DNA from: a virus
Lineage: Duplodnaviria; Heunggongvirae; Uroviricota; Caudoviricetes
Length of the DNA stretch: 58,225 nucleotides
Virus record (IMG/VR): IMGVR_UViG_2671180275_000006
Direction: 5' to 3' (one strand)
Position numbers: made by a program. Every line of letters starts with the position of its first letter. Positions within the stretch are counted from its first letter, which is position 1. Of this stretch, positions 53,201 to 58,225 are shown piece by piece.

Positions 53201-56200
53201 ACCACTACTGTAATTGATTGATATTACAGTTGTTTTATTTTTATGGTGTCGATTCTGATTGTTTTTTGTTCATCACTAACACCGTTTGCCTAAAGTTGTT
53301 CGCAAGATGCATGTTTAAAACATTCTGGAGCGGGTATGGATCGAGAGTTAAAAAATCTGACGCTGAATATCAGTCAACTGGCGGCATTGTCAGGTGTACA
53401 TCGCCAGACTGCTGCGGCAAGGCTGCAAAATCTACCCGTTGCAGGGGGGCATGAAAGCAACCTCAAGCTTTATCGGGTGGTTGATATTGTGTCGGCATTT
53501 CTGGCATTACCACCGCCGGTTGCAGAAGGCGAAATGGACGCGCATGAGCGCAAAGCCTGGTATCAGTCTGAACGTGAGCGTCTTAAGTTCGAACAGGAAA
53601 CGGCACAACTCATTCCGGCCAGTGATGTCAGACGGGAGTTTGCCATCTGGGCAAAAGCGGTCGTGCAGGTGCTGGAGACATTACCGGATATTCTTGAACG
53701 TGACTGCGGTCTGCAGCCTGCCGCTGTGAGCCGTGTTCAGTCCATTATTGATGATCTGCGCGATCAGATAGCCCTGCGGGTGACTGAAGCAGGTGCGGAT
53801 GATGAGGAGGAATTACAGCAGGAGGAGTAATGCTGAATCAGGAAACCGCAAAGGCAGCACGAACCGATTCAGGTTATATCCTTCGCGCACCGAGACGAAT
53901 GCGGGTTGCTGATGCCGTTGCTCAGTATATGCGGGTGCCCATGGGGGCAGGGAACTCAGTCCCGTGGGATCCGCTGGTGGCACCGTATGTTATTGAGCCT
54001 ATGAACTGCCTGGCCTCGCGTGAATACGACGCAGTGATATTTGTTGGCCCGGCACGAACCGGCAAGACTATCGGCCTGATTGACGGCTGGGTGATTTACA
54101 ACGTGATTTGCGATCCTGCTGATATGCTGATCATTCAGATGACGGAGGAAAAAGCCCGCGAACACTCCAAAAAACGACTCGCCAGAACGTTTCGCGTCAG
54201 CCCGGAAGTGGTCAGTCGCCTGAGTCCGAACAAAAATGACAACAACGTTTATGACAGAACATTCCTTGCTGGCAACTACCTGAAAATCGGCTGGCCGTCA
54301 GTCAATATCATGTCTTCATCAGATTATAAATGCGTGGCGCTGACGGATTATGACCGTTTTCCGGAAGATATTGATGGTGAGGGGGATGCCTTCTCTCTTG
54401 CCTCAAAACGTACCACCACATTTATGTCCAGTGGTATGACGCTGGTGGAGAGTTCCCCCGGCAGGGATGTGAAGGATGTGAAATGGCGACGGACTTCACC
54501 GCATGAGGCTCCACCAACCACGGGGATCCTGTCGCTCTATAACCGTGGCGATCGCCGTCGCTGGTACTGGCCCTGTCCACACTGTGGTGAGTATTTTCAG
54601 CCCTGCGGCGATGTGGTTGCTGGTTTCCGTGATATTGCCGATCCTGTGCTGGCAAGTGAGGCGGCTTATATTCAGTGTCCTTCCTGTTCAGGACGGATTT
54701 TGCCTGAACAAAAACGCGAGCTGAACGGACGTGGGGTCTGGTTACGGGATGGTGAATCCATCAATGCAGATGGCAGTCGTTATGGTGATCCCCGGCGTTC
54801 ACGTATTGCGTCATTCTGGATGTAGGGTACATTTCTTACCTGTTTGTATGTTCTGGTGTCGTTTCATAGTCTTTTCAATGAGTTGTGATTTTATGAGTTT
54901 CCTCTCTTTGCTTGATAATGAGTTAGTTTATCGCTTGTTATTGGCTTGAATGGACTACATGACGGACTAAAAAATGAGGGCGATAGATGTCGGTAAAGCC
55001 ATTAACCGTGACTGAAGTTAAGGGGATGAAACCACGTGAAAAGGACTATGCCGTTTATGATGGGTTCGGTTTATTGCTGAATGTGAGTAAAGCCGGTGGG
55101 AAAGTGTGGCGTTTCCGTTATAGCCATCCGATAACGAAGAAACGGCAGACATACACGATAGGACGTTTTCCTGAATTCTCACTCGCGGAAGCACGGGAAG
55201 TACGTGATGAACTTCGGCGAATGATTGCACGTGGAGTTGATCCAGTGACGGAGAAGAAAAATCGTAAAATTGAGATGTCACTAAAAAATCTACAGACATT
55301 TGAAGCTGTTGCTAATGCATGGTTCGCTTTTAAAAAGGGATCTGAATTGCGGAAACCTACGCTGTATAATATCGAATATGAAGTATACAAATATCTTGTT
55401 CCTTTCTTTGGTAAGTACAGTATAGAAAAAATTACAGCACCAGTAGCTATTAATGCTCTGGATGCCGTATCCGATAAGAATGCGTTGCAAAAAAAATTAA
55501 TATCAAGATTAAATGAAATTATGAATTATGCTGTAAATTGTGGAACATTGAAAACAAATCCATTACTTAAGATAAAGACTGCATTCACAGGAAAGAAAAA
55601 TAAATCATTAGCAGCACTACCTGTTGAAAGATTGCCTGAATTTCTGAGCTGGTGGGATAGTGTGCCTCATACCTATCAAATAGCTCATAATGCACTTTTA
55701 TTCCAGATATTGACAATGGTCAGGCCAGGTGAGGCAATTAAAGCAGAGTGGTCAGAGATTGATTTTGATTCTGGCTTGTGGATTATCCCCGCGCATAAAA
55801 TGAAATGCCATCGTGAACATGTTGTTCCCTTGTCATCACAGGCTATTAGTATCCTCAGAACAATGCAGGAAATAAAAAGAGGGCGTTATGTGTTTTTTTC
55901 CTCCAGAACAAAAGATGCGCCTATGGGGAGGAATACTATCAAGACCCCAATTGCTGCCAGCAAGTTCAAAGGGATTGTAACGTTACATGGTTTTCGTTCA
56001 ATGTGGAGTACGCTTTTAAATGAGGAGGGATTTAACCCCGATGTAATCGAGGCTGCATTGGCGCATAAAAGTGGTGATAAAATAAGAGATGTTTATAATA
56101 GAACTACTTATCTAGAACAGCGTAAGATCATGATGCAATGGGTCGGTGATTTTTTTGATGATGCGAGAAAAGGGGTAATTAATAGATCCGGTGGTATGAA

Positions 56201-58225
56201 AGGTTTAAGAGTAGTAAATGGTTGAGGAGGTTCAGCAAATGAATACCAATGAAGATATTTTATTTACTAAAGACGTAATGAAAATCTTGCGATATGGAGC
56301 AATGAGTGCATTCATCAATTTCTGGAAAGATGAGAATAATGGTTTTCCTCAGCCGTTCAGAATTGGACGACGACATACCTGGCACCGTAGAGATGTAGAA
56401 GCATGGTTAGATAAACAACGAGAACAAGCCAATCCCCACTAATAATATCTTTCATACCCCGCGTGCAATGCGGGGTTTTTTGTATGTGAGGTAAAAAAGA
56501 AATGAATAAAAATATTGCCGTGACGGGCAAGGGTGACGCACGTCATGTAAAAAAATTCTGTGATTTTCGTGATCTGGTCGTTCTGCGCTTTGATAGTGTG
56601 AACGTTCGCGTGGTGTATCTGAACGGCGATCCGTGGTTTGTTGCAAAGGATGTCTGCGCTGCGCTGGAACTGACCAATTCGCGTACGGCGTTGCAGATGC
56701 TTGATGATGATGAAAAGGGAGTAAATTTAACTTACACCCCAGGAGGAAATCAGAATATGAGCATTATCTCTGAGTCAGGTTTCTACAAACTAATAGCCCG
56801 TAGCCGCAAAGCAACGACGCAAGGCACATTCGCCCATCGTTTCAGTAACTGGGTATTCAGAAATGTGATACCGGGTATCAGAAAAACGGGGGCTTATGGT
56901 ATCCCGTGGGGTGCATTACAGGATTTTTCCCGCCGTAAAGAGCAATATCAGATAAGTGCCAGCGAGAAGGGGAGGGCGCTACAGGCATGTAAGCGCAAAA
57001 AACGTGAACTGGAGGAAGAAGAAAAAAGGCTGATACGTGAATATCAGCCTGAGTTTTACTTTGGTGAGCGTATTCAGTAACCACACGCGGTGCTGATTAT
57101 ACGGTACATCGTGTTAACCGAGAAGCTACCCACCAGCAAGGCAAAATCTTCTGCTAAAAAATGACATATGGCCCGTCGTCCGGAAAGCATGAAATTTTAC
57201 AAAAATGGAAAATGAAGATTTTTATTGTGCTGGTGGGTAAAAACAAAAAGCGCCCCGTTGCCGGAGCGCCCTTGCGAACAATTAACCTGCTGCGAAAAAA
57301 TTGGATCAGTGCAGGGGAATTATATCAACTGTGTGAAGAAGCGCCACAATTGCCGGATAACAGGCAAAGAAAAGGCCACCTGTCACGGTGGCCCTTCGAC
57401 ACAAATTTCGCGTTATCCCCAACGCATGAGCATCGCCGACAATGCCACATTTACGGCTGGTGGACAAGGCTATCAGCCAGGCGGTCGGTTTTTAGTGGCT
57501 TTTAACCGCCGTGGGTATTTATCGACAAAATCTTCAAGGGCAAATTTTTCTGGTGGCACTAAGCGCGGCGCTGGTGGTGGTATTTTTGTTCTGGTTAGTT
57601 CTTCCTCAAGTCTGGCGCAGGCTTCTGACTGCCTTTGCCGGATGATTTCATCATCTTGCGTTTGCGTGTCTTGTATTGGTGATAGTGTGTTGTTGGTCAT
57701 GATACTGCCCTGTAAAGCAATGCGCCGGAGTACCTCACACCACGGCGCTGATAGTTTTTATCCTTTGGGTTCTATACCGCGCCGCTTTAGTTCAGTGCGC
57801 CCCAACTCTTTAAGCCAGTTGGCTAGGCTTATGCCGTCGCTCTGTGCTTCTTTATCGAATTGCTCTTTTAGCTCTGGAGAAATTCGCATTCTGAATTGTG
57901 GGGATTGCCCGTCCCCTTTAGGGCTTTTATCGCGTTTGATTGTTGACAAGTGGTCACCTATTGAATTAGCCTTTCTATTGTTAGGTGACCACCTTAACAC
58001 AAGAGCACTTAAAAAAGCAAAGCCCCGCAAGTGTCATTACCACTCGCAGGGCTTCTAACCAACAACGTAAACGAGGAGCCGTTATGGTTGCCGTAAATCA
58101 TATACCACACCTTGTACACACACAAACGGCCTTTGTGTGGCGTTTTCTGGCCCTGAATATCGGAGAAAAAAACCAGTTGATCGCCAGTGTCGAAAATAGC
58201 TATGATTCCCGCGCACCTCATAAAA

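Follow-up and report, generated by a model that had tools for sequence, protein, structure and literature searches.

Why does the large terminase gene (terL) of a lambdoid prophage stop after some 330 codons, exactly where an integrase gene begins, and can such a prophage regain the capacity to package its DNA? The question is posed by a stretch of caudoviral DNA, IMG/VR record IMGVR_UViG_2671180275_000006, whose 58,225 nucleotides are referred to here as the window. An earlier note had offered two readings of the break: either a satellite had integrated into the gene with which its helper prophage packages DNA, or a deletion had fused two elements. The comparisons described below make it highly likely that a satellite of about 10 kb, of the phage-inducible chromosomal island (PICI) type and co-oriented with the late operon, has integrated site-specifically inside the helper terL. 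The satellite option is corroborated by an empty site, by the 3′ half of the gene in a relative and by in silico excision, and the element-inside-element arrangement that the note had supposed stands, with the satellite lying within a prophage gene.

The 5′ part of the gene (terL′) forms an open reading frame (ORF) on the plus strand at 53830-54825, composed of 331 codons and a TAG stop that is supplied by the attP sequence of the inserted element. Pfam recognises in it a complete GpA_ATPase domain at residues 41-304, i.e., the whole ATPase domain is kept, and the GpA_nuclease domain was not found in this ORF. The Walker A motif (GPARTGKT, from residue 73) and the zinc motif (cysteine pairs CPHC at 249 and CPSC at 283) are located as the earlier note had described for a gene ending at 54825. 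An intact allele in the prophage of strain S19-651 encodes a TerL protein of 700 aa in which GpA_ATPase (PF05876, residues 41-304) is followed by GpA_nuclease (PF20454, residues 326-644), the domain pair that identifies a GpA-type large terminase, and its residues 1-331 match the window ORF exactly. This comparison fixes the breakpoint at codon 331/332 and confirms that terL is interrupted after about 330 codons at an integrase element; the window ORF encodes the ATPase domain alone because of the satellite insertion. The cut falls about six positions into the nuclease-domain profile, thus separating the two catalytic domains, and the attachment site in the uninterrupted gene (attB) encodes, at the ATPase/nuclease boundary, the conserved peptide RIASFWM|EGP, in which the bar marks the junction. 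Translation of the nuclease half from an in-frame ATG within the attachment core was also considered and is rated unlikely, as attR carries no purine-rich Shine-Dalgarno-like tract upstream.

The crossover core YTGGATG is common to attL, attR and attB and was seen in the loci of E. coli JNEC-KY179, FDAARGOS_293 and strain 154 as well as in 42 further loci; in attL, it is overlapped by terL codons 329-331 (F-W-M). The uninterrupted attB reads ...GCGTCATT-CTGGATG-GAGGGGCC..., attL reads ...GCGTCATT-CTGGATG-TAGGGTAC..., attR, which lies outside the window and is read from relatives, is ...CTTCTTC-CTGGATG-GAGGGGCC..., and the reconstructed attP is ...CTTCTTC-YTGGATG-TAGGGTAC.... The empty site is provided by S19-651, whose uninterrupted terL belongs to a region matching window 38000-54827 at 100% identity by megablast (99.96% by local blastn against 52362-54827). 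The occupied site is complete in JNEC-KY179, whose helper is 99.97% identical to that of the window: the 5′ part of terL is followed by a 9502-bp element, a fragment annotated as 'terminase gpA endonuclease', the portal gene and the remaining late operon. Joining the two JNEC-KY179 parts of terL at the core yields in silico a TerL of 700 aa with 0 mismatches against the intact protein. JNEC-KY179, an O157 strain and three IMG/VR contigs all show the features that a clean insertion should leave on its far side, an attR with its own YTGGATG and beyond it the 3′ half of terL; neither att core is damaged in the relatives. At the level of sequence, these comparisons demonstrate the split at codon 331/332, the immediate TAG from attP and the exact restoration of the gene by in silico deletion to a single core. 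For the window's own genome, we infer the same clean, site-specific insertion rather than a deletion; its source genome would then show attR as ...TTACTTCTTCYTGGATG|GAGGGGCC... past the satellite.

Sequences that could serve the recombinase flank the core. The satellite left end contains a candidate arm-type repeat, TTTATCGCTT, at 54927-54936, next to a related TTATTGGCTT at 54938-54947, and in the reconstructed attP of three elements co-oriented copies of TTTATCGCTT lie at positions -101 and +108 relative to the core centre, where the integrase would be predicted to bind.

The junction is widespread and in nearly all copies falls at the same terL codon. Of 5426 complete E. coli genomes, 90 carry the satellite left end, which is present at 98 places in all, and at least 56 of the 60 left-end matches listed abut a terL fragment. 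For the integrase gene the count is 96 genomes, with nucleotide identities of 92.5-99.9%, and the next relatives stand at only about 64%. Carriers include O157:H7, O145:H28, O121:H19, O111, O103 and O45 strains, many of them Shiga toxin-producing E. coli (STEC). The O157 strain FDAARGOS_293 has a Stx1a-converting prophage with a terL that is likewise split, here by a copy of 10.3 kb, and its TerL shares only about 70% identity with that of the window. When a 22-mer from the left junction was searched in IMG/VR and metagenome contigs, 42 more loci were recovered, 41 of which carry a TerL N-terminal fragment ending at residue ~331-333. The TerL alleles at these loci are 63-100% identical to that of the window and differ at synonymous positions, and R-I-A-S-F-W-M precedes the junction at every inspected flank. 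All three loci of sufficient length also contain attR and the TerL C-terminal half around elements of 10.17-10.43 kb, and in relatives the element measures 9.5-10.4 kb and has the terL 3′ half next to it.

The satellite appears to have moved between helpers recently. The integrase of the window is 100% identical in amino acid sequence to the copy in the O157 Stx1a prophage, as are the helix-turn-helix (HTH) and Bro-N proteins, despite the ~70% identity of the TerL proteins that surround them, and such identity across helpers argues for very recent transfer. Likewise, the satellite DNA of the window is 99.9% identical to the O157 copy and 97.0% identical to the JNEC-KY179 copy, though the helpers of the window and JNEC-KY179 are 99.97% identical; one and the same helper is thus known in an empty state and with either of two satellite variants. 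Taken from sequence identities, this pattern argues for recent satellite mobility.

How firmly can other origins of the junction be set aside? If deletion or illegitimate recombination had fused a truncated prophage to an unrelated integrase island, the 3′ half of terL would be lost and the junction would be a scar, and the window, which displays the left junction alone and stops before any right end, is compatible with this. Yet JNEC-KY179, the O157 strain and the three IMG/VR contigs have the identical junction and, past it, attR with the exact 3′ half of terL; the codon of the junction stays the same among terL alleles whose proteins differ by as much as 37%; and the window is 99.99% identical to JNEC-KY179 over 1-35615 and 99.97% over the helper part. 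The deletion option of the earlier note is rejected for the relatives and, by extension from them, for the genome of the window, where it appears very improbable. An assembly chimera of repeated prophage sequences deserves even less weight: E. coli is rich in near-identical lambdoid segments prone to misassembly, but about 90 complete genomes, as well as metagenome assemblies made independently, contain the junction, and the complementary right junction agrees with it; we regard this explanation as practically negligible. More weight, though still little, falls to a satellite that integrated site-specifically and now lies stranded and immobile in a defective prophage, terL loss then being effectively permanent, a case of prophage inactivation and not of a switch. 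An IS3-family insertion in a tail gene of the closest helper relatives, the fragmentation of the protease and capsid genes in the JNEC-KY179 satellite and the failure to find attP junctions in public contigs speak for it, and many helpers of helper-embedded PICIs (HE-PICIs) look truncated according to Tommasini et al. (PMC10111431). Against this, the integrase, HTH and Bro-N ORFs of the window are intact and encode proteins with identical counterparts in other helpers, the helper is known without a satellite as well as with two satellite variants, and both att cores of the relatives are undamaged, which leaves permanent stranding unlikely.

Several observations nonetheless weigh against a functional satellite inserted in terL. 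Only the first 3.4 kb of the element fall inside the window, and neither attR nor the 3′ half of terL is visible for the source genome itself. The 30-mer that spans the excised attP junction (TTACTTCTTCYTGGATGTAGGGTACATTTC) was not found in viral and metagenome contigs, and excision in this satellite family is therefore putative. The capsid genes of the JNEC-KY179 satellite are degraded, the IS3-family element splits the helper tail gene in both JNEC-KY179 (42066-43656 of the extracted locus) and S19-651 (13502-15092), and neither cos-like copy of the related satellites fits the cosB-like block of the window helper well (58-67%). Lastly, promoters and terminators were sought by a simple consensus scan. 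The tail insertion and the degraded capsid genes of the relatives suggest that this helper-satellite pair may no longer be productive and is possibly stranded; since the IS3-family insert occurs in occupied and empty relatives alike, the helper lineage may be tail-defective independently of the satellite. The statement of the earlier note that the prophage cannot package holds only while the element is integrated and fails as a description of a permanent state, for a precise insertion should be reversible by excision: the disruption of packaging is probably reversible.

To what kind of satellite does the insertion belong? In complete relatives, the gene order is int, HTH, Bro-N, leftward YlcI/YnfO, Icd-like, DUF4222, D5-type primase, SSB, a ClpP-protease/major-capsid fusion and a small ORF. 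The satellite shares with P4 the Arm-DNA-bind_3 plus catalytic architecture of its integrase, a D5-type primase-helicase and an Icd-like gene; it differs in its helper, lambdoid instead of P2, and in its target, a phage gene instead of a tRNA gene. P4-like elements are defined by a module for capsid size and transactivation (sid, psu, delta and epsilon) and by a P2-type helper. None of psu, delta, sid and epsilon is listed in the annotations of the complete relatives, no dedicated sid/psu profile search having been made, and the helper is not of P2 type. Of the P4-type integrase with AlpA and Bro-N genes that the earlier note had placed after the truncated terL, the integrase, a gap of 161 bp and the Bro-N gene are there; the P4 type applies to the domain architecture of the integrase only, and the second gene is no more than AlpA-like. 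Capsid-forming PICIs (cf-PICIs) possess a full head module (portal, protease, capsid and connectors) together with terS/HNH, whereas the relatives show just the ClpP-protease/major-capsid fusion, with no portal or terminase genes. This fusion is 51% identical to that of the helper. The int-alpA-primase backbone, the size of about 10 kb, the captured capsid gene and the lambdoid-helper cos-type packaging are those of Gram-negative PICIs such as EcCICFT073 (PMC10111431). By gene content, then, the satellite is of the Gram-negative PICI type and not P4-like, and the arrangement is that of a helper-embedded PICI: classical PICIs occupy chromosomal housekeeping sites and meet their helper in trans only, whereas the satellite described here sits inside the helper packaging gene.

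HE-PICIs were described by Tommasini, Mageeney and Williams in 2023, with Eco567.11capE of E. coli NRG857c as founder (PMC10111431). Like 11capE, the present satellite interrupts a lambdoid prophage in one of its late genes, co-oriented with it and precisely inserted, its attP carries no replacement sequence, its genes fall into four zones (int/HTH, Bro, replication, and a captured late capsid gene) and it has a cos-like sequence in common with its helper. The late-gene context is visible in the window, where terL′ and int lie on the plus strand 161 bp apart, and it recurs in 41 of the 42 further loci. The zone order begins in the window with int, HTH, Bro-N and a leftward repressor-like gene and continues in the relatives, which also supply attR for the precise attL/attR pair with its short identity block, to be set beside the uninterrupted attB. 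Proteins of the satellite set were compared with those of 11capE, taken from NRG857c. The replication genes are close homologues, with 86.7% identity for the primase, 86% for the Icd-like protein and 66% for SSB; the small ORF of 246 bp reaches 90% and YlcI 60%. The integrase reaches 25% identity and 86 bits, and the HTH/excisionase had no match at E <= 1e-3. The HE-PICI survey kept integrases with at least 400 bits against the 11capE integrase (PMC10111431, Supplementary Table 1), and the present one falls far outside that clade. The diagnostic HE-PICI attP carries a doubled tgTGTATTGCantgTGTATTGCa motif at -81 and +132 (PMC10111431). The motif TGTATTGC is absent from the attP arm at 54823-54986, the three copies in the window all lying elsewhere; in place of the doubled TGTATTGC, the reconstructed attP has TTTATCGCTT at -101/+108, a similar geometry with a different sequence.

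The target also appears to be new. Among the 14 HE-PICI sites catalogued there, those in terL are A:Terminase_1:132 and :245 (PMC10111431), and the GpA terL site is not one of them; neither 'GpA' nor the att strings occur in the main text, the preprint or the supplementary files, one of these being available in part. No literature report was found of this terL site in O157 or STEC prophages. In the Sakai strain, terminases have been reported as intact in all lambdoid prophages except Sp4. The helper-embedded arrangement itself is thus already known (PMC10111431), and what is new is the integration module, the target site and the presence in Stx1a and other STEC prophages.

Altogether, these features can be assembled into a model. 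The integrase would have recombined attP with an attB in terL at YTGGATG and, in the lysogen, the insertion would be silent, by analogy with 11capE, for which the order composite excision, replication and (delayed) satellite excision has been shown (PMC10111431). On the same analogy, helper late transcription would after induction continue past the terL′ stop and cover int and the excisionase-like gene. Read-through into int and HTH is postulated because the plus strand, scanned from the terL′ stop to the start of int, showed nothing resembling a terminator or promoter. Late excision of the satellite would then restore terL, the satellite would replicate with its own primase and SSB, and the helper terminase would package it by way of the satellite cos-like sites, the capsids possibly being built from the satellite's own protease-capsid fusion protein. 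Again by analogy, helper packaging would on balance be delayed or reduced and co-inheritance with the helper guaranteed. In related satellites, one cos-like copy lies upstream of the capsid gene and the other near the right end. One of the copies is 83-95% identical to that of the Stx1a helper, the cosB-like block of copy B standing at 83%, and copy A is of a different type, with a weak match of 64-67% to the window helper; the two copies may confer dual packaging specificity, which these alignments offer as a lead and not as a finding.

Elements of regulated gene integrity are exemplified by the skin element in sigK of B. subtilis and by a Listeria phage in comK. The present case is similar in that a mobile element splits a gene and its precise excision would restore it at a defined stage; it differs in that the split gene belongs to another mobile element and in that the presumed beneficiary is the satellite. 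HE-PICIs have been assigned to this class by Tommasini et al. (PMC10111431).

What the locus may mean more generally can be proposed tentatively, as a possibility that stops somewhat short of probable: helper-embedding would not be confined to one integrase clade, the same PICI replication backbone having acquired an unrelated integration module that independently targets GpA terL at RIASFWM|EGP, with the result of a reversible packaging switch in lambdoid prophages, Stx1a prophages included, that could modulate the production and spread of Stx phages. Embedding in late genes would then have been reached more than once, or passed on by module swaps, instead of being the quirk of one recombinase. 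It is the packaging enzyme that is targeted, and the break separates its two catalytic domains exactly. Because the carriers include STEC serotypes and at least one Stx1a prophage, an effect on toxin-converting phages is possible: a satellite that gates terminase expression could alter the production of such phages and the efficiency of their transmission. For annotation, 'terminase pseudogenes' of this sort should not be taken as a sign of a dead prophage.

Integration outside GpA terL occurs occasionally, as it does for 11capE, and involves here opgB, a site downstream of pgrR and the TerL gene of a Mu-like prophage. In E. coli O22:H8 strain 154, a satellite copy (L004:12005-22351), 99.5% identical to that of the window over the shared 2.9 kb, splits the chromosomal opgB gene; its attL is GTTGAAGATG|TAGGG and its attR CTTCTTGGATG|AAACTG, which have GATG alone in common, and the strain has another satellite copy in a terL gene. 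The intergenic secondary site downstream of pgrR (...CTTTGTCACTTTTTGGATG|TAGGG) is occupied, with an identical flank, in one complete genome, that of strain RM10410 (L130:2470-2510), and in one IMG/VR contig (L094). In E. coli OkiPb01677 (L131:944-2506), a Mu-like prophage has the satellite at a CTGGATG of its large terminase gene, which comes after a gene of the Mu Gp27 family and has its match in PHROG 2 (terminase large subunit). The element would thus have hit another terminase family, unrelated to the first, in a single case that could be chance. Another IMG/VR contig (L110) has, to the left of the satellite, a TerL N-terminal fragment 75% identical to that of the window and, to the right, a C-terminal fragment 98% identical, and is either a mosaic terL or the outcome of two helpers having recombined across the satellite. 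Among species-representative genomes, the best integrase relative is 40% identical and none of 80 loci has a GpA terL nearby, a scan that is uninformative on terL tropism beyond E. coli. This integrase is absent from the phage collection, where no relative of the protein exceeds ~39% identity.

The features of the locus are collected in Table 1.

Table 1. Features of the split terL locus and of related satellites; coordinates refer to the window unless a relative is named.
Feature	Coordinates	Strand	Remarks
cos-like region of helper	53122..53276	+	upstream of small-terminase-like gene; conserved blocks in comparison with relatives
DUF1441 gene, small terminase subunit (Nu1) position	53336..53830	+	Pfam DUF1441, E = 2.7e-41
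terL′, 5′ part of helper GpA-type large terminase gene	53830..54825	+	codons 1-331, then TAG
attL crossover core CTGGATG (consensus YTGGATG)	54816..54822	+	from alignment of attL, attR and empty attB
Satellite left end, P′ arm of attP	54823..54986	+	contains candidate arm-type repeats
Tyrosine integrase	54987..56225	+	412 aa; Arm-DNA-bind_3, Phage_int_M/SAM, Phage_integrase (Pfam)
Small HTH protein, putative excisionase/AlpA-like regulator	56239..56442	+	67 aa; PHROG 66, E = 9e-7
Terminator-like hairpin and T run	56456..56476	+	consensus scan; directly after int-HTH pair
Bro-N/anti-repressor-like gene, Bro zone	56502..57080	+	Pfam Bro-N, E = 4.9e-20; PHROG 2593 anti-repressor, E = 1.5e-85
Two leftward satellite ORFs	57473..58030	-	57473-57700 hypothetical; 57758-58030 YlcI/YnfO-position, Arc-like repressor
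Satellite continuing beyond window end	58031..58225		replication and late zones, attR and terL 3′ half outside the window
cos-like copies, FDAARGOS_293 satellite	L003:21695-21975 and 24225-24505
cos-like copies, JNEC-KY179 satellite	L001:28424-28704 and 30109-30384

Within the satellite part of the window, the integrase ORF is intact, begins 161 bp after the terL′ stop and contains the catalytic-type motifs VRPGE, HGFR, LAHK and VYNR. The family matched by the HTH protein, PHROG 66, bears the label 'excisionase and transcriptional regulator', and in Pfam this gene has only a weak match, HTH_17; its longest ORF starts at 56218, and PGAP annotates the 204-bp version in relatives. Position and role make the protein putatively AlpA-like. 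The leftward gene at 57758-58030 matches PHROG 228 (Arc-like repressor) and, weakly, HicB, and the YlcI/YnfO genes of relatives hold the same position. From 57762 to 58225 (the last 464 bases), the window fails to align with the satellites of JNEC-KY179, FDAARGOS_293 and strain 154; a divergent YlcI/Arc-like repressor allele there is in keeping with a fast-changing Bro/immunity zone. Scanned against Rfam (E <= 0.1), window 52000-58225 yielded no C4/isrK-type immunity RNA.

The helper is a Qin-like lambdoid prophage of E. coli adjoining rspB, where it is placed through the match of window 1-35615 with JNEC-KY179, and its own integrase lies at window 34127-35407. The DUF1441 gene stands directly 5′ of terL in all relatives. 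The helper cos-like region aligns blockwise with that of the Stx1a helper of FDAARGOS_293 and with the two cos-like copies of related satellites; its cosN-like core, CACGGGGCGGGAGCGTCGCGGAAAAAGGC at 53146-53174, resembles lambda cosN. The sequenced phage mEp460_ev081 (LR597641.1) carries the same terL allele uninterrupted, at 99.2% identity across the attB region (window 54700-54828), and is a candidate free-living helper or target. The left part of the window, 1-23845, is a second prophage unrelated to the helper. Its genes, assigned through the 99.99% identity with JNEC-KY179, include tail-fibre, Ail/Lom and Hok/Gef genes and an 8.4-kb LPD5-domain gene (window 10456-18837), and its end adjoins a truncated 4Fe-4S gene at 23762-23845, taken as ynfG, beside ynfF.

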